Assembly (NCBI GenBank): GCA_964016885.1
Contig: OZ024749.1
Location: forward strand, 30,876,001 to 30,940,000
Length of the DNA stretch: 64,000 nucleotides
DNA from: Eledone cirrhosa
Taxonomy: Eukaryota
Direction: 5' to 3'
A program made the position numbers and the translations under genes. Shown piece by piece: positions 1,983 through 63,663 of this stretch. The notes under the pieces were generated by a model, which had not been told where the DNA came from, searched no databases, and was given only the letters and a program-made list of their open reading frames with translations. Numbering within the stretch: position 1 is the first letter of the stretch; each line of letters starts with the position of its first letter.

Positions 1983-2218
1983 AATTTAGCCGCTTTATTC
2001 ACTTCGAAGTAACTAAGACTCGGAAGTTTGGTCGCTTTATTCATGACAAACAACAACGACACAATTGTATTCGCATCATTCATCTCGAAGCAGCAGAGAC
2101 ATAATTTTAGTCGCTTCATTCATGACGAAACAATTAAGGCACATCATTTTGGTCGCTTCATTCATCTCGAAGCAACTAACTCACAGAACTTTCGTCGCTT
2201 CTTTAATTTGGAAGCAAT
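1983..2218. repeat. Degenerate ~40-42 bp tandem repeat (~6 copies)
   Basis: Recurring TTTRGTCGCTTYATTCATYTCGAAGCA-like core at about 41-nt spacing. Confidence 0.75.
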
Positions 2219-2304
2219 TTTAAAACTCGGATGAAAGTTACACAATCATCCGAGCAGGATGAAATTTGAATAATCAATCGTACCTTGCGTTGTAATATGA
2301 TGTA

Positions 2305-2352
<48 letters not shown>

Positions 2353-2779
2353 GGGGGGGGTGATCATCCCAGCAACCCAGCTCCACGAAAACTGGCTCCC
2401 ACACATCGCTCATATATCTTATGATACAAAACATCACCAGATAAAATTGACATATCTTCATATAATTAAGGTTATTGTCACCTCAGTCGGAATAACGCTT
2501 ATTGCCATAAATATATATTTGACTTGTATTAACGATAATGAATTAATGATCATGATCAAATTAAACAATAAATATTTCACACTTACAGACAATGACCTAT
2601 AATTAGTATAGATATAATGTCGCGCCCTTATAATATCTGTCTGTATGTCTGGTGTTTGCATTGCGACATTATGATACTATATGTGTGTGTGTGTATATAT
2701 GTATATATAGTGTGTGTATATATATAGTGTGTAGCGTTTTTCGAAATATTTACTTCTGCGTTCACAGATTGATTATTTT

Positions 2780-2830
2780 AGTTTCAGAAGATCTCGTTTA
2801 GGGTGAAAGCAGCGATTCTTTGCTTAAACT
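2780..2830 (+). ncRNA. Type I hammerhead-like fold, family B (core CAGAAGA)
   Basis: AGUUU-CAGAAGA-stem II-GAAA-GCAG..UUGC-UU-AAACU; stem I AGUUU/AAACU. Confidence 0.6.
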
Positions 2831-2974
2831 TTAATATGTTATTTAAATATATATATATATATTCGTGTACACATATTTTCGCATACTGAATAACAAAATA
2901 TAAACAAACGTATTTATTTCACGAGGATCGATAAGGATAAATATATTCAAATATATAAGAACCCTAGAGAAAAC

Positions 2975-3002
2975 CCCGAGCAGCGCCGGGCCATTCTGCT
3001 AG
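2975..3002 (+). mobile_element. Helitron-type 3' terminus
   Basis: GC-rich hairpin CCCGAGCAGCGCCGGG followed about 8 nt later by CTAG|T. Confidence 0.6.
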
Positions 3003-3116
3003 TCTTTGTTAATAGATTTTTGGTAATTTAAAAGATTGGTAAGAAACAACACAAAATGCCATACACATATATATTTCGATACACATACACTTACCTACAC
3101 GCCTACATACACACAG

Positions 3117-3170
<54 letters not shown>

Positions 3171-3208
3171 ATACATATCTGTGTGTGTGTTAGGCATGTA
3201 AGTAAGTG

Positions 3209-3246
<38 letters not shown>

Positions 3247-3816
3247 CAGAGACATACACACATATGCCCACACATATAACTGGATTCATTCGTACACATA
3301 TAGTGACATACACGTTTACATACAAACATCCATGCATACATATGTACACAAATAAATATAATTACACTTAAAGAAAAATTCACTGATAGATAAGATAAAT
3401 AGATAGATGAAGAGAGCGATAGTAGGAGAGAGAGAGAAAAAATAGACGCAAAGATAAATACATAGATAGATAAATATTCATACATATATATTACATACAT
3501 ACATGCATACATAAATGCGTACTTGTATACCAGCATACAAACATACATAGGCATACACAGTCACACATATATATATAAGTATATTGAAACACAAAGTCTT
3601 TTCTTAAAATCAGATGTGTGTTCTGTCAAAATGTTCTTTTCTTCTTACACTCTGGAGGAGAATGAAGACACACCCACACACACGCACGCACACATACACA
3701 CATACACACACACACACATTCACACACACACACACACACCTATATATATATATATATGTATGTGTGTGTGCATGTGTGTGCGTATGTGTGTGTGTATGTG
3801 TATTTGTGTGTGAGCG

Positions 3817-7045: not shown

Positions 7046-7077
<32 letters not shown>

Positions 7078-7087
7078 AACCAGTAAG

Positions 7088-7181
7088 ACCCCGACAGCTG
7101 AGCTCAAGCCGTTTCGACGGCTAATTCTGGACTAAATGAAAATTTATCCTGGTATTTAAATAGCCGATCTTCTCAAGGGGT
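7088..7181 (-). ncRNA. Type I hammerhead, family A, U3-A8 core (UUGAGAA)
   Basis: Stem I ACCCC/GGGGU; stem II GAUCGGCUA..UAGCCGUC; GAAA; stem III CGGCU..AGCUG; GUC cleavage triplet. Confidence 0.7.
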
Positions 7182-8282
7182 AATTCCATATATGGTCAAA
7201 GTGATTGTCAAAAATCAGTAGTAATTCTGTGGTTGCAAATCAGTAGGGGAGATGGTGGCTAAACCTGCCAGTAGGAGAAAGAGGGGAGGGGGTGGAGTAG
7301 ACCCAATCAAGCGTTGGTAGTGCCAGCTACAGCTGGGCATGAGGTCAAAGAAGATACAGGGGAGGGGGAGGGGGAGGAAGTCGGAACGGTAGGTAGAACA
7401 ATGGGGGGTAGAAATAGGAAAGAAAAAATACTGAGAGTGAAGAAAAGCAAATAAGTGTAAAGAAAAAAGTAAAGTAAATTAAATTCTACGACCTAGGTGT
7501 CAGGCTATTGTTAGGCGAGAATAAAATAAAGAAAGAAAGAAAGAAGTAAATAAATAAATAAATAAATAAGGAAATAAGTAAGAGAACTAGGTGGGACGGA
7601 TAAGGCAAGGACCCTTTTAAGAGGTATAAGTACGTAAATGATACGGTGACGGGTCAACCAAAGGGGCCAAAATACTAAAGAGACTACCACGAAATAAACA
7701 ATAAAGGTTTCCATCCCGGGCCAGCAACGACCCAGTGCAGCAAAGTGAACTTGTACGAGATAATAATTCTGAGTCCCGAGAAAAATATATACTAATGCTA
7801 ACTCTAAAAGATCTAAAACAAGCTACATGAAAGTTCGTACGAAATAAAGGTAGAATACGGAGAAATAAGTTCAGAATCCACCCCGCCCAGAAGAAAAGCG
7901 AAGCAAGAAATACTGAAACGAAAAAATAAGGCATAAGTGCCACTAAGAAATATAGAGGGCACAGAGAATAGTGGGAGCGGTCGGAAAAAGGGGGAAAGTA
8001 TCCGGGGTCTAAGCCAACTGCTATAAAGGGCGGAGTCCGTCAAATCTATCAAAGACTAGGGAAGGGAGGGGGGGTACTAAGGCTACATGGGGCCAAAGGG
8101 CAGCCTCGGGTGGGCGAGAAAAGACGCCGACAAAGGAGAAGAGCTGGGGTAGAAGGACAAAGGAGAGAGGGGGGAAGGAAATAAAGGAAGCGATAAAAGA
8201 ATACAAAGAAGATCTTACGTCTTCCTTGGCAAGCAGGGGTTACCCATTGCAAAATCGGCAACTGGGGTGTTATAGCCCTAGT

Positions 8283-8603
8283 CTACCCCCCCGGGTCATT
8301 ATGGGGTTTGAGGGCGAGGTAAGTCCTACGCAATCTATGTTTACATGCAGTAACCAGTTCATCTTTCTTGTTTAGGAGTTGGTCCGTCGAAAACAGCATT
8401 TGTAAAGTTTCCTCCGAGCATAAATTGCACGGACGGCGTCCTCCCGTGTAAGAATTGGCTCTGGACAGTAATCTCCAAGTGAGATCATAGGTGATGTTGT
8501 TGTCCTTGAGGTCCCATATGTGGCCCGAAAGTGTAGTGGCGTGACGCCGGGCCGGGTTTCGGAAGGTATGTCTATGTTGGTATAGCCGGGTCTTGAAGTC
8601 ACA
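8283..8603 (-). pseudogene. GIY-YIG endonuclease C-terminal fragment (107 codons)
   Basis: Manual translation: CDFKTRLYQHRHTF..TTLSGHIWDLK..W..CNLCSEE..LLNKKDELVTACKHR..stop. Confidence 0.88.
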
Positions 8604-8680
8604 TATTACATAACTAATAAGCTCTGTAGGCTACATAGAGCACTCTCTTTTCATGTACCTTTCCTACGGAAATACTTCAC

Positions 8681-10675: not shown

Positions 10676-10761
10676 ATATATATATATATACACAGACACA
10701 CACACATATATATATAGTGACGAAACATAAGTCAATTGCATGAACTCATAATCCTTTATTT

Positions 10762-10818
10762 ACTGCTATATATATTTTCGATGATAGCCATTGAATAGCT
10801 ATGACCTTATCAGGCAGT
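10762..10818 (-). ncRNA. Hammerhead, family C, left arm (core mutated to CUGAUAA)
   Basis: Inverted copy of 12073-12128 with G8A. Confidence 0.6.
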
Positions 10819-12072
10819 TAGTCAGTTCTTAGATATGCCAGCTCTGTGTTTATAGTGTTGATGGTATCAGACCCTTGGGACATATGAGCTTGTTAGGAAT
10901 AATGTAATGCTGTCAGCAGGAATAGTCTTGATTCTCATTGGTCAGTTAGTAGATGCTAGTAGGGTTGGTATTTGACCTCAAAGAGGCAGGTGGTGTTGCA
11001 AAGTTCAAACCGTCAGGCAAGATGACAATAGTTCCATATGACTGATTTTCACAAAAAGCATTCATGGTCAGATATATATTCAATTAAGGTTAATAGTATG
11101 AAATAGATACTACAGGTCATTCCTAAATTGAGGAATGTATGTGGAGTGGTGCTACTGAAAATTATGGTTAGAGTAGAACATTTACAAATAAAAAGACTTA
11201 TGTAGGTTGGCTTGCACATACACTCACACCCACCTCCACAGACACACACACACATCCACACATACAAATTGAGGAATTAATGTGGGGTGGTAATACTTAA
11301 AATAATGGTTAGAGTAAAATACTTAGATAGTTTAGAAACTTTAGAAATAAAAAAACTTATGTTGGTTGACTTGTACATACACTCACACCTACCCCCCCCA
11401 GACACGCACACACCTACACACGCAAATCCATACAGGTGTGTATATATATATATGTACGCACAAGTGCATATATATATACAACAGAGGCCCCCAAATCCAT
11501 ATATAAGGCAGTCATAAAACTAGGTGGGTGTTTGGAAAATTTATTGTTTAGACTAGACAAAGGTGGAGTGTGATATATATCTTCACAGCAATTTGTATTG
11601 TGCATGTGTGGATGTGTGTATGGATGTATGTGTGGATGTGTGTGTGTGTCTGTGGAGGCGGGAGTGAGTGTATGTGCAAGCCAACCTACATAAGTCTTTT
11701 TATTTGTAAATTTTCTACTGTAACCATCATTTTCAGTAGCACCACTCCACATAAATTCCTCAATTTAGGAATGACCTGTAGTATCTATTTCATACTATTA
11801 CCCTTAATTTAATATATATCTGACCAGGAATGCTTTTTGTGAAAATCAGTCATATGGAACTATTGTCATCTTGCCTGACGGTTTGAACTTTACAACACCA
11901 CCTGCCTCTTTGAGGTCAAATACCGACCCTACTAGCATCTACAAACTGACCAATGAGAATTAAGACTATTCCTGCTGACAACATTAAATTATTCCTAACA
12001 AGCTCATATGTCCCAAGGCTCTGATACCATCAACACTATAAACACAGAGCTGGCATATCTAAGAACTGCCTA

Positions 12073-12128
12073 ACTGCCTGATGAGGTCATAGCCAGTCAA
12101 TTACTATCATCGAAATATATATAGCAGT
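12073..12128 (+). ncRNA. Type I hammerhead ribozyme, family C
   Basis: ACUGC-CUGAUGA-GGUCAUAG..CUAUCAUC-GAAA-UAUAUA-UA-GCAGU; predicted cleavage after 12123. Confidence 0.85.
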
Positions 12129-12259
12129 AAATAAAGGATTATGAGTTGATGCAATTGACTTATGCTTCGTCACTATTATAACTCCAGAACTTATATCTTC
12201 GTTGAGTGGTCCCTATCCCCATACTGAAGTACTGAATTTTACCAACACTTACTTTCTTG

Positions 12260-15251: not shown

Positions 15252-15324
<73 letters not shown>

Positions 15325-15544
15325 GCTGCTGCTACTGCTGCTGACAGAGTGCTAGTTTAGTGTACAATGTGAGATTTATGACGAAAAGACCAGAGACAGA
15401 CTAATGAAGGACATCCAGTTTGTCGTCATGCTAATTGGTCATTGATACCAAACATTAAAATCGATTATAAACTTTTTATTGTCGATTAAAAACAAACGGC
15501 CATACATGAACATGTATATACATATATGTATATAAATATGCATA

Positions 15545-15607
<63 letters not shown>

Positions 15608-15610
<3 letters not shown>

Positions 15611-15722
15611 TGAGTGGTTAGAGAACTGGATTCGCAATCGTGAGGTTGTGAGTTCGATTCCTGGACCGGGCGATGCGTTATGTCCTTGAGCAACACACTT
15701 TATTTCACGCTGCTCCTTCTAC
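15608..15722 (+). mobile_element. tRNA-derived CORE-type SINE (truncated)
   Basis: A box GGCTGAGTGG, B box GTTCGATTCC, CORE-like GTCCTTGAGCAACACACT. Confidence 0.75.
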
Positions 15723-15885
15723 CTGGAGTTGCGACCGATAGATAGTATTAGCAATTGGAAAGACCAATGGAAACACTGTTTCCTCGGTCCGATTTGACGA
15801 AAGTCGATCGTTAGGAATCGTTATGAATATATATATATAAATTAATTCAAAATATTAACAAAATAGATATTCTTGTGATAAATTA

Positions 15886-15952
15886 TATTTTATTATACAT
15901 ATTTCAGAGGTACTGAGTTAAGTTCAACAGTACGTACTCATCAGATAAAATA
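15886..15952 (-). ncRNA. Type I hammerhead, family D, left arm
   Basis: UAUUUUAU-CUGAUGA-stem II(GUACUG/CAGUAC)-GAAA-UAUGUA-UA-AUAAAAUA. Confidence 0.78.
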
Positions 15953-16041
15953 AGATGATGCATGACATACCCTGACATAGTAGATGGTTAAGATTCAGAC
16001 CATGACTGAATCTTAACCATCTACTATGTCATGCATCATCT

Positions 16042-16108
16042 TATTTTATCTGATGAGTACGTACTGTTGGACTTAACTCAGTACCTCTGAAATATGTATA
16101 ATAACATA
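16042..16108 (+). ncRNA. Type I hammerhead, family D, right arm
   Basis: Same fold with CUGAUGA at 16050-16056 and one stem I mismatch. Confidence 0.75.
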
Positions 16109-16298
16109 TCATTTATCACAAGAATATCTATTTTGTTAATATTTTGAATTAATATTAATAACTCTGGAAAACCTTTTCTGTTGAGTGCTTCCAATCTAGT
16201 GTAAAACTCATTCTTTGATGTATTCATTGAACCTTGTTTAACTTTTAAATATAATGTATATATATATATACATATATATATATATGTATATATGTTTG

Positions 16299-16404
<106 letters not shown>

Positions 16405-16631
16405 TATGTATATACATGTTCATGTATGGCCGTTTGTTTTTTTATCGAGAGTAAAAAGTTTATAATCTATTTTAATGTTTGGTTTCAATGACCAATTATC
16501 ATGACGACAAACTGGATGTCCTTAATTAGTGTGTCTCTGGCCTTTTCTTCATTAACAACCTCACATTTAACACTAAACTACCACTCTGTCAGCAGCAGTA
16601 GCAGCAGCAGTAGTAGTGGTAGTAGTAGTAA

Positions 16632-16678
<47 letters not shown>

Positions 16679-16691
16679 TATATATATATAT

Positions 16692-17090
16692 CTAGGGAGT
16701 GTAACTTGGAGTTACTGTAGGTTCACCCGGGTGAGCACTCGATGTTTAGGTTCACTTCAGTGTCGAGGTGTAGAGCTAGACAGAGTGTATTATAGTTAAA
16801 TAAGATAACAAGGACGATTGGTTACTCCTTCATTATGTTTATTGGTTGGTGACGCGGGTTTCGCCACTGACCAGCTCAAGGTTCGATCTGTATCGATCTG
16901 ACCTGAATCTGAAATCCTAGGCTCGTCAGACGCCTTGTAATGTTAATGGGGTCTGACGACCCGCAGATTCAGAGTCAGGTCAGATCGCTACAGCTTGAAC
17001 CTTGAGCTGGTCAGTGGCGAAACGCCCGTCACCAACTAATACACGTAATGAAGGAGTAACCAATCGTCCTTGTTATCTTATTTAACTATA
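16692..17090. mobile_element. Fold-back Penelope-like insertion, family F (tail on left arm)
   Basis: 16792-16931 mirrors 16951-17090; HHR folds at 16848-16932 (-) and 16950-17033 (+) with CUGACGA..GAAA..GUC. Confidence 0.8.
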
Positions 17091-20141: not shown

Positions 20142-20147
<6 letters not shown>

Positions 20148-20508
20148 GATTCTACAGGACTAGAACTGTTTCATTCATTAGAAATCATCAGGAATCTGGG
20201 TATCAAAAAATAAATATGGTATTTATAGGTCTCTACAAGTGGTAGGAGAGGGTGGGGAGTGGGATGGGTGCAGGTCATTGGTTTCTATCAACCAATGACC
20301 TGCACCCATCCCACTCCCCACCCTCTCCTACCACTTGTAGAGACCTATAAATACCATATTTATTTTTTGATACCCAGATTCCTGATGATTTCTAATGAAT
20401 GAAACAGTTCTAGTCCTGTAGAATCTCATCTATATTAAAACTGTTATACTCTGCTATGTATTGAGTACCTTACTTACTGTGGTTACCTCCGATTCAACCC
20501 GGAATAAC

Positions 20509-23499: not shown

Positions 23500-24246
23500 A
23501 TCGTATTAGTATTCATTTTCGGCATCTGAATTAATATTTCGTATTAGTTTCGGGTCTCTGAATTATTATTTCGTATTAGGTTTTTTTAGTATTTTGGCCC
23601 CCTACTTGTTGACCTGTCATTGTAAGATAGATTAGGCCAAGTACTACTAACTCATAAAATTCTTTCACTACAATCTCGTATTTAGTATCCCGCTCGACTT
23701 TTCTATAGTCTAGTGAGGGATTTGATGATTGTGGTAGGGGAATAGTAACCAGAAATTGTGTTTGTTTATGTTTTTAACATTCTTATTTATCTATATAGAT
23801 TTAATCCATATAGATCTACTTATTGTTTCGATTCCTCCCCTCCCCTCCCCCTCTTGACCTCTTAGCCTTAGGATTCTGCTGTAGTCCTCACTTTCAACGC
23901 ACGACTGGGTTTCCTCCAATCCCTCTCCCTCTTTCTTCTACTGGCAAGTTCAGCTACCCCTTTCTTCCACAAAATGCCATGATAGAATTATGTCTCTCAA
24001 CAACAAACTTTTGACCAATCCTTGTGACAATCACTTTTACCATATATGGAATATTACCCCCTGAGAAGCTCGGCTATTCATTTACCAGGATAAACATTTT
24101 CATTTAGTCCAGAATTAGCCGTCGAAACAGCTTGAGCTCAGCCGTCGGGGTCCTACTCGTTCCTATTACCCACTCTACTACCCTAAGTATTGAGTATTTT
24201 GGTACGTTATGGTCCATCTAGTTCCGTACCACATTTCCTTCGTTAA
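23500..24246 (+). mobile_element. Family A Penelope-like 3' region with HHR (24056-24151) and tail
   Basis: Homologous to reverse-complement 7076-7300; ACCCC-CUGAGAA..GAAA..GUC-GGGGU; 5' boundary uncertain. Confidence 0.7.
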
Positions 24247-25294: not shown

Positions 25295-25355
<61 letters not shown>

Positions 25356-25358
<3 letters not shown>

Positions 25359-26456
25359 CGAGTAGGACCCCATTGTTATCCTTGAGGTCCCATATGTGGC
25401 CCGAAGGTGTAGTGGCGTGACGCCGGGCCGGGTTTCGGAAGGTATGTCTGTGTTGGTATAGCCGGGTCTTGAAGTCACATGCGGTTAATCCTATGTAAGC
25501 TTTGTTGGAGGTGTCCGTCCTCACGTTGCACTGGTAGATCACATTACGATCTCTGCATCTGTTGTCGAGGGGGCAAATGGATTCATCAGGACAGTTGCAC
25601 TTCCTGGTCGGCTCTCCACTGCTATTTAGGTTATTTCTTCCATAGGGGTTGAGTTTTGTGTTGTTAGAGGAGACGATGTTTAGTGTAAAGTTTGGTGTGG
25701 TGCTGTAGGAGAGTTTGATGGTATTTTTGTTAATTATGTTGGGGTAGCGGTGTTGTAGTGGGAAGTGTTTTTCAATGAGCCTAAAGAAGATTTTCCCGAT
25801 AGGAGTTGTCATCTCGGCGTTGTGGGGAGGATTGAACCATGTTATATTGCGTGAGCGGCGGTGTCGCCCGCTGGTTCCGCTAATGGAAGCTGGACAGTAG
25901 GATATTTCCTCCCGGAAACCACCCTGCTTGAGGGCCTGGTTGTAATAAGGCGTATGTTCCTCGAATATCTGCTCATTAGCGGACAAACGAGAATTGTTTA
26001 CGGATCCGGTCTGTACTACTGGGGTTGTACCCTTTAAGGGTAAGGAGCCCATCATCACGGTACAATCCACCGCCGAATGCAGGAAACATAACGGTGAGTT
26101 TAGCTAGTAGAAATAATCCTATAAGATCTGTGACCTCAGCCGAATCGGTCGCGCCCATGCTGGCGTCAAAGGGGGAGTCGGGAGCTCTATTTATCCATTT
26201 GGAGTTGTCGAAGAGTAGGACTGTCTTCCTGGCGTGGATGATGATGTTTCTTTCATTGTCGGTGATGGGCGCAAGTGTTTCGGCGAAGTCCAAGGCAGCC
26301 GTAAGTAGCGTCACGCCACTACACTTTCGGGCCACATATGGGACCTCAAGGATAACACTGGGGTCCTTCTCGTTCCTATTACCCACTCTACTACCCTAAG
26401 TATTGAGTAATTTGGTACGTTATGGTCCACCTGGTTCCTTACCACATTTCCTTCGT

Positions 26457-26458
<2 letters not shown>
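25356..26458 (-). mobile_element. Rearranged Naiad-type Penelope-like element (RT + GIY-YIG fragments), family A fold-back
   Basis: RT motifs MGATDSAEVTDLIG and LYRDDGL; WFNPP; CNCxxxxxCPLxxxC linker; VIY..YIG; internal deletion near 25990; inverted tailed arm 26308-26458. Confidence 0.9.
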
Positions 26459-27092
<634 letters not shown>

Positions 27093-43061: not shown

Positions 43062-43555
43062 TATTATTATAATTCATGTCTACAGAATTATTAGATAAAC
43101 AAAATATATACTCCATTTCCTCTGCCAAACAGCACAATCAACCATATAAAAAATCAATTATACTAAGCCATAAGGATAAAAGCTCCTATGAATAAATCCC
43201 CGACAAATAAACGAGAGTGGCTTCTTCGCGGTATCCACAGCAGGTTATTTATCCAACATTTCGACAGCATGCATAAATCGACCTGCTGTAGATACCGCGA
43301 AGAAGCCACTCTCGTTTATTTGTCGGAGATTTCTTCATAGGAGCTTTTAACCTTATGGCTTAGTATAATTGATTTTTTATATGGTTGATTGTGCTGATTG
43401 GCAGAGGAAATGGAGTATATATTTTGTTTATCTAATAATTCTGTAGACATGATTTATAATAATATATTGTTCTGAGTATTTAATTTATTAATTCTTCATA
43501 GAGCTAAAAAGTGATCGGTTGTAACATATATAAATTTATGTATATGTAAACCTTT
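43062..43555. mobile_element. Fold-back insertion, family K (~190-bp arms, tail on right; no HHR recognised)
   Basis: 43062-43250 mirrors ~43275-43465; TA flanks; tail hairpin GUUC-UGAG..UUCA-UA-GAGC. Confidence 0.8.
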
Positions 43556-51444: not shown

Positions 51445-52027
51445 CCCTCTGAAGAACATAATGAACTACTGAGTGTCAACATATTAAACCTCTGAGGATC
51501 AACATAATTAACCACTGAGGATCAACATAATGAACCAGTGCGGATCAACATAATGAACCAGTCAGAATCAACACATTAATCCACTGAGGATTAACATAAT
51601 GAATCACTGAGGATTAATATAATGAACCAGCGAGGATCAAAATAATGAACCAATGTGGATCAACTTAATGAACCAATGAGGATCAACATATTGAACCACT
51701 GAGGATCAACATATTGAACTTCTGAGAATCAACATAATGAACCAGTGAGGATCAACATAGTGAACCACTGAGGATCAACATAAGGAACCACTGAGGATCA
51801 ACATAATGGACCACTGAGAATCACCAGAATAAACCACTGAGGATCAACATAATGAACCAGTGAGATTCAACATATTGAACCATAAAGATCAACATATTCA
51901 ACCACTGAGAATCTACATATTGAACCACTGAGAATCAACATCACGAACCAGTGAGCATCAACATAATTAACTACTAAGAATTAACATAATGAACCACTGA
52001 TAATAAACATAATGAACCACTGAGAAT
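51445..52027. repeat. 23-bp minisatellite, ~25 diverged copies
   Basis: Consensus AACATAATGAACCACTGAGGATC. Confidence 0.92.
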
Positions 52028-63533: not shown

Positions 63534-63581
63534 ATTTGTTAATACTGTTTACTTTCCACATACAACAACTAAATGTGTATA

Positions 63582-63615
<34 letters not shown>

Positions 63616-63663
63616 TATACACATTTAGTTGTTGTATGTGGAAAGTAAACAGTATTAACAAAT
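63534..63663. repeat. Perfect inverted repeat centred on (TA)n
   Basis: ATTTGTTAATACTGTTTACTTTCCACATACAACAACTAAATGTGTATATGC mirrored across a TA run. Confidence 0.9.

Follow-up and report, generated by a model that had tools for sequence, protein, structure and literature searches.

DNA junctions at the predicted hammerhead cut of a Penelope-like element in Eledone cirrhosa suggest self-cleavage in vivo

The locus analyzed here raises the question of whether the RNA of a retroelement, cut in the cell by its own predicted hammerhead ribozyme, might have been joined to a second RNA end and then copied back into the genome. It is located in a window of 64,000 nt of the Eledone cirrhosa contig OZ024749.1 (the whole stretch of DNA that was analyzed) and consists of a Hydra-like Penelope-like element (PLE) whose insertion is twin-armed and in which both arms join a broken endonuclease (EN) coding sequence to the predicted cleavage site.

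Anatomy of the insertion and of its family

The region 25298..26499 is delimited by two (TA)n runs representing the target flanks, the left one at 25298..25355 and the right one at 26459..26499. The arm on the minus strand begins with a short tail (25356..25371), which covers the element from +1 to about +17 starting from the predicted hammerhead cut (GGGGTC). It continues with the C-terminal part of the reverse transcriptase (RT), the CxCx5C linker and the N-terminal part of the GIY-YIG EN (25372..25992, element 1508-2128), broken within the EN and bluntly fused to +1, and then with a second RT fragment (25992..26310, element 981-1299), separated from the preceding part by an internal deletion of 208 nt that is absent in the 40 best-scoring relatives of the ORF fragment. 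The inverted arm, on the plus strand, embeds the final 50-52 nt of EN ahead of the junction (26308..26359), followed by a long tail (26360..26458) that sequence comparison assigns to element positions +1 to +99, counted from the predicted cut. Comparison of the arms places the inversion centre at 26308..26310, a 3-nt microhomology common to both.

The two arms are very unequal, the minus one comprising about 940 nt of RT/EN and a tail of 16-17 nt, the plus one only 50 nt of EN and a tail of 99 nt; in the stretch that they share (25356-25423 on the minus strand, 26308-26375 on the plus strand) they differ at 3 of 68 bases. About 890 nt of the short-tail arm are absent from the long-tail arm, and 82 nt of the latter are absent from the former. 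Thus, each arm holds sequence missing from the other, and neither is a copy of the other. Both strands open at the TA flank as antisense element sequence, the pattern that would be expected if both target ends had primed cDNA synthesis. The contigs of four sequencing runs over the locus were repeat-family fragments, none of which spans the junction, and are uninformative on it. None of the sequencing runs listed is recorded as RNA.

Concerning the family, the unit, measured between successive GGGGTC boundaries, is 3,578 nt long in the near-full copy L163 (20 long genomic copies were compared), with a long 3' UTR, and exceeds the usual length of the Hydra clade (<3 kb). It contains a single ORF, with the RT followed by the GIY-YIG EN, which is open over 684 aa in the copy L167 and harbors the FDI and YRDD motifs of the RT and the VIYQ..YIG motif of the EN. 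This is the arrangement of a Penelope-like (C-terminal EN+) ORF; 156 homologues were retrieved, one of them with PF00078, and a Pfam scan of two ORFs matched no family. The partial tandems of the pLTR, the inverted truncated copy and the one-sided tail are further PLE traits. The translations contain RWR, DKT, CNCPDESIC (the CxCx5C linker) and CNLC..CKH (CxxC/CxH), and TA flanks are typical of the copies, as in the Hydra clade, for which the published description lists RWK-like and DKT motifs, the CxCx5C linker, CxxC/CxH flanking E and N, the absence of CxxC before GIY-YIG, and (TA)n targets (PMC8557442). By the description of its motifs and targets, the family appears to fit this clade. The typical copy is an inverted pair with one 17-nt and one 99-nt tail, so that the short/long pair of this locus follows the family norm; most insertions are near-perfect palindromes with private variants common to both arms, and the first 20 bases of the tail have 35,230 exact matches genome-wide.

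At least eight further copies were recognized in the window (at 7076, 23815, 28283, 29132, 33724, 34019, 35695 and 41553), several of which are short palindromes in (TA)n, and their ages differ. Two of the eight carry a whole hammerhead: the reference copy (7076..8604, minus strand), with the EN C-terminus, the 3' UTR, a U3-A8 core and the predicted cut at 7093|7092, and a neighbouring, independent copy (23815..24246, plus strand), with a C3·A8 core and the predicted cut at 24146|24147. As for other features of the window, a 290-bp inverted repeat of another family (16795-17086), with CTGACGA and GACCCC/GGGGTC, possibly represents a second hammerhead-bearing PLE. The near-perfect inverted repeats at 10717-12173, 15256-16677, 20145-20428, 43065-43461 and 63539-63658 are likely twin-armed insertions of other families, and tandem arrays are found at 68-573 (80-nt unit) and 51455-52027 (23-nt unit).

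The junction and the predicted ribozyme

On the minus strand EN extends up to 25372 and GGGGTCC starts from 25371, and on the plus strand EN extends up to 26359 and GGGGTCC starts from 26360, exactly as the first-pass annotation had placed the two joins. Its figure of about 1.4 kb lost with respect to the 7076-8604 copy was also correct: about 1.40 kb is missing relative to that copy (where the EN match stops near 8496 and the cut site is at 7092), and 1,450 nt relative to L163 (element 2128 to 3578). The same annotation had described EN as fused directly to GGGGTCC, with AT or CT at the join. The direct fusion stands for both arms; the AT/CT reading needs correction, in that the AT ahead of GGGG belongs to the element (it is the most frequent continuation in the 20 long copies) and the CT of the right arm arose from it by a subsequent A>C change. 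Since AT is native to the element, the join is blunt, without filler and without microhomology, and it is placed between the U and the A of a U-A step of the RNA within EN.

The EN|GGGGTC junction, searched in the 3.0 Gb assembly with one mismatch allowed, gave two matches, both at the 25356-26458 locus, so that the recurrence at other loci about which the first-pass annotation had asked was not observed. The annotation had attributed the shared junction either to a single chimeric molecule or to a deleted master element. An internally deleted master already carrying the junction would account for its presence on both arms, but it is hardly credible in view of these two matches and of the 40 relatives without the 208-nt deletion; the origin from the same chimeric molecule, instead, fits the fact that neither arm contains the other. 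For this reason both arms were likely primed on one template bearing the join. A deleted, non-autonomous subfamily (SIDE- or retrozyme-like) was also considered and rejected, the junction being confined to one locus rather than found at many. Other 3'-truncated pieces of the element are fused at +1 (L221, L120, L062, L223 and L124), and thus the 25356-26458 locus belongs to a class of such joins.

A type I hammerhead fold spans the unit boundary, with three helices and an NUH triplet, here GUC. Stem I is formed by ACCCC/GGGGU, stem II is long (G10.1-C11.1 plus a 6-bp helix), and stem III has 6 bp and a palindromic loop. The constrained fold has a free energy of -22.6/-22.9 kcal/mol vs -24.1/-26.9 kcal/mol for the minimum, i.e., 1.5-4 kcal/mol above it. 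The core reads YUGAGAA and not the canonical CUGANGA, in the variants U3-A8 (13 of 33 distinct copies) or C3·A8, a mismatch (20 of 33), C3-G8 occurring in none of the 33. In the subfamily sharing the tail of this locus, C3·A8 is found in 17 of 24 cores. U3-A8 is a described variant of the hammerhead core (PMC4209133). An Rfam scan of the 64-kb window revealed no hammerhead family among 150 of 276 matches listed, where microsatellite hairpins dominate. Self-cleavage after GUC is predicted from this fold, and we infer it from the DNA junction fossils considered below.

Breakpoints at the cut site

The junction of the 25356-26458 locus, if taken alone and before weighing its bluntness and its sharing by the two arms, would have roughly a 1-in-6 chance of being a coincidence, given the background rate. 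At the family level, the placement of junctions is beyond chance. Breakpoints were counted genome-wide as tails preceded by five non-native bases: among the 35,230 tail matches, 335 fall at the cut; a shift of one base downstream lowers the count to 47, and one of three bases upstream to 57, i.e., an excess of about 5-8-fold over neighbouring positions. This is the enrichment at GUC|GGGG that the first-pass annotation had set as a test of its interpretation. Part of the excess is represented by inverted-arm joins with GG microhomology, and about 15 of 100 listed among the 335 are single-G insertions; 84 junctions were examined from these 100, most of the G-insertion rows being left out.

Hand tallies refer to the first 100 matches listed, on contigs C1-C3. 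Considering the ends anchored to TA, 28 of 100 among the matches listed (of 414) begin at +1, and the 15 other positions between -9 and +7 average 4.8; when inverted-arm joins are removed, the ends at +1 are 22 of 62 among the matches listed (p ~1e-11). The next-highest position, +6, has 13 among the matches listed, nearly all attributable to inverted-arm microhomology. Where A7 lies directly upstream, the join is at +1 in 10 of 12 loci. By our estimate, about 97% of the copies cross the cut site unscarred and about 3% are scarred; unscarred crossing is equally compatible with RNA that was uncut, religated or seamlessly jumped.

It might be supposed that no cleavage occurred and that a DNA-level deletion, or the stalling of the RT at the stem III hairpin, hit this base by chance. 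The breakpoints at the neighbouring bases, the non-canonical core and the separate 208-nt deletion, an ordinary rearrangement of the same copy, are in agreement with this idea. A stall, however, would produce a peak at -1 to -3, where 2, 4 and 5 TA-anchored ends per 100 listed were counted, respectively, and a deletion following insertion would have to strike both arms identically, with no microhomology to guide it. Moreover, the tails, which pick up again precisely at C17, the U6 end and the partner arms stopping at +1, all described in the next section, would be left without explanation. We thus regard a cleavage-free origin as quite improbable.

RNA ends, partner arms and the origin of the join

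The sequences inserted between GUC and GGGGUC allow the two sides of the cut to be analyzed separately. Non-G inserts at this point are U/A-rich stretches of 5-30 nt in 16 of 27 matches (15 loci) and in none of 13 at the control position -7; single-nucleotide inserts, which make up 10 of the 27 matches at the cut and 4 of the 13 at -7, were excluded from the evidence. When inserts of at least 4 nt were searched from -3 to +1, 99 matches were obtained; untemplated U/A tails account for 18 of them (17 loci), and every one lies precisely at the cut; no such tail was found among the 99 at the three positions upstream of it, and the remaining matches are templated duplications. The 19 tail copies are composed of A (65%) and U (23%), and 11 of them start with U. 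The possibility that they are templated filler was rejected, as they match the element and its flanks no better than shuffled sequences do. Tails placed exactly between C17 and G1.1 require a free end at each of the two bases, regardless of whether a host tailing enzyme or the terminal transferase activity of the RT made them. As to the cores, U3-A8 is present in 13 of 17 tailed loci and C3·A8 in 4 of 17; by the evidence of this family, the U3-A8 variant, and possibly C3·A8, would suffice for cleavage. Separately, stem III is duplicated over 24 nt, with an 8-nt microhomology, between two copies of GCCGTC in about 45 of the 99 insert matches; this recurrent duplication could derive from slippage or from re-priming on the cleaved 3' end and was not counted as evidence.

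Pure poly(A) stretches of 22-28 nt also occur at the cut (L210 4543-4572 and L216 4510-4531), once between both cleavage products and once as the sole upstream sequence. At L063 (1510-1611; C1:148857807-148857926), the last ~40 nt of U6 snRNA, ending in five U, are fused to +1 on both inverted arms. This is the sole U6 locus found by exact pattern; an Rfam e-value scan recovered the U6 piece with E values of 2e-4 and 8e-4, below the gathering score, and at the gathering score no U6 match was obtained in five junction loci because the piece is only ~42 nt long. Two other loci display peculiar fusions at the cut: L124 (605-835 and 4315-4550) contains head-to-tail repeats of the element from +1 to +63/65, fused twice, 3.7 kb apart, which might reflect repeated jumps or a tiny circle, and L222 (4400-4502) a foreign hairpin of ~85 nt, MITE- or pre-miRNA-like.

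The partner arm of the 19 tailed loci starts at +1 in 11 cases (7 clean and 4 with one mismatch in GGGG) and just downstream in 3; it shares the tail in 1, never crosses natively, and is not in view in 4. The starts at +1 (11 of 15 tailed loci vs 1 of 30 unselected arms) are significantly overrepresented (p=1.4e-6), also under the strict count (7 of 15, p=9e-4). Since the partner arm was not selected for, its stop at +1 is independent evidence of insertion from a cut RNA with a free 5' end. The U/A tails, the poly(A), the U6 3' end and the partner stops all fall at the same base, and make the first-pass interpretation of the junction as a fossil of in vivo self-cleavage likely; on the basis of these genomic sequences, the hammerhead of this PLE family very probably cleaves itself in vivo. 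It may also be observed that ordinary arms (L003-L032) mostly stop upstream of the cut at a distance of 28-45 nt (native sequence extends beyond -110 in 3 of 30), and that arms past a tail (L190-L225) nearly all continue for hundreds to thousands of bases; the intact ribozyme fold may block the RT.

How the EN fragment came to be joined to the cut end is a further question. The reading that we prefer, with a confidence that stands midway, is that the RNA cut itself in the cell, that an RNA ligase probably linked the new 5' end to an RNA broken in EN, and that both arms were reverse-transcribed from the joined RNA. According to this scheme, self-cleavage after GUC would leave a 5'-OH end at GGGGUC; the RNA would also be broken within EN, at the U-A step, and RtcB-type ligation would unite the two ends, possibly into a 2.1-kb circle. 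Both ends of the cut (TA)n site would then prime cDNA at +17 and +99, and, as the anatomy of the locus suggests, the two cDNAs would cross the join, stop after ~940 and 50 nt, respectively, and unite through the 3-nt microhomology. Untailed RNA ends at U6 and at the U-A step could carry a cyclic phosphate. It is known that RtcB ligates U6>p to 5'-OH RNA (PMC6789731) and circularizes hammerhead-cut retrozymes (PMC7229834).

At the DNA level, the blunt join crossed by both cDNAs is compatible with RtcB-type ligation. Among the joins without a tail, three of five are crossed by both arms (the 25356-26458 locus, the U6 locus L063 and L120), against 1 of 16 among those with a tail (p=0.03; 0.09 leaving out the 25356-26458 locus). 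This difference, together with the possible cyclic-phosphate ends, a substrate of RtcB, leads us to place ligation slightly ahead of a double template jump at this locus. The latter would imply that cleavage was real and ligation absent, two RTs each having copied up to the cleaved 5' end and then switched, end to end, to the same RNA break in EN. Several findings speak for jumping: in 17 loci, tailed acceptors (3'-OH), unusable by RtcB, were joined at +1; the partner stops in tailed loci point to a free 5' end, which favors jumping over ligation there; in seven loci (L201-203, L205-208), 1-nt inserts are not common to both arms; and the RT of R2 jumps in vivo from a ribozyme-made 5' end to U12 and tRNA (PMC3414825). 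Besides, at L194 both arms cross the join through its tail, and thus the sharing of a join does not require ligation. The double jump nevertheless has to produce an identical blunt join on both arms at 25356-26458 without any added base, its second RT must jump onto an end already copied, and double crossing is rare precisely at tailed ends and commoner at untailed ones; we hold it to be rather unlikely.

A different possibility is that one cDNA crossed the join once and folded back to form a long palindrome, most of the long-tail arm being subsequently lost through a one-sided deletion. The abundance in the family of near-perfect palindromes sharing private variants is in agreement with this idea, and so are the other three double-crossing loci, which are small and near-symmetric palindromes. 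Such a history would, however, need an extra one-sided deletion of ~890 nt and would still need a cleaved end; the 3-nt microhomology at the centre also disagrees with it, and the tailed loci, in which either arm, short-tail or long-tail, is the longer one equally often and the partner ends at +1, fit two independent primings. This makes the fold-back origin improbable.

If the preferred scheme of cleavage followed by ligation is extended to the tailed loci, a more general and tentative model, to which we assign less than an even chance, can be advanced. PLEs would transpose via a hammerhead-cut RNA bearing two priming RTs, one at +17 and the other at +99. The 5'-OH end left by the cut would have two fates: either a host ligase would rejoin it (with the 3' end of the same RNA, with a broken end as at 25356-26458, or with U6) and both RTs would read through, or, after host U/A tailing of the upstream product, one RT would jump across and the other would run off. 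A C3·A8 core would be enough for this in vivo. If this is true, the cutting, tailing and repair of a PLE ribozyme can be read from the genome to the single base.

Comparison with known systems

In vivo self-cutting was previously an open point for hammerhead-bearing PLEs. For Poseidon PAc, the accessible part of the report describes no RNA-seq reads starting or ending at the cut, and cleavage as dispensable in vitro (PMC11167929), and the PLE hammerhead papers (PMC4209133, PMC11167929, PMC8557442), in the parts accessible to us, report no evidence of cleavage in vivo. No published report of junction fossils of hammerhead cleavage in PLEs was found in the open-access literature covered here. 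The family analyzed here gives countable DNA evidence that the cut would occur on RNAs later retrotransposed, naming the exact base, and the data also support twin priming as the way in which the inverted arms of PLEs arise. Counts of this kind can be repeated in any genome rich in PLEs, so that the question can be tested directly.

Ribozyme-junction fossils for R2/HDV and U6 ligation for L1 are already known, and what appears to be new is the occurrence of such fossils at a PLE hammerhead. The 5' genomic junctions of R2 mark the cleavage site of its HDV-like ribozyme (PMC3774820, PMC3414825), and the likeness extends to the non-templated bases at that site and to jumping in vivo, which in R2 leads from the 5' end made by cleavage to the small RNAs U12 and tRNA. 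Unlike R2, the ribozyme is here a PLE hammerhead, the cut lies within the element's own tandem boundary, the tails are placed between the cleavage products, and the insertion into (TA)n is twin-armed. The U6 locus resembles the U6/LINE-1 chimeras attributed to RtcB (PMC6789731), in which the U6 3' end is joined to the 5'-OH end of a retrotransposon RNA and then retrotransposed; the nuclease making the 5'-OH of L1 is unknown and its site varies, whereas here there is one predicted ribozyme site and one U6 locus. As in the hammerhead PLEs already described (min-HHRs PMC4209133, Poseidon PAc PMC11167929, Hydra PMC8557442), a type I hammerhead in the pLTR has a bulge before stem II and a palindromic loop 3. 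The U3-A8 variant is shared with Schistosoma Cercyon (PMC4209133), and the two RT start sites giving the tail (PMC11167929), the inverted truncated copy and the (TA)n targets recall described PLEs; the tail, in contrast, is ~82 nt here vs 30-40 there, and C3·A8 cores are common here. Lastly, non-LTR retrozymes (PMC7229834; bioRxiv 10.64898/2026.07.22.740005) show a similar type I hammerhead cleavage, a proposed RtcB-type circularization and a link with PLEs, but they are non-coding tandem repeats supported by RNA evidence, whereas the element of Eledone cirrhosa is a coding PLE known from DNA fossils alone.
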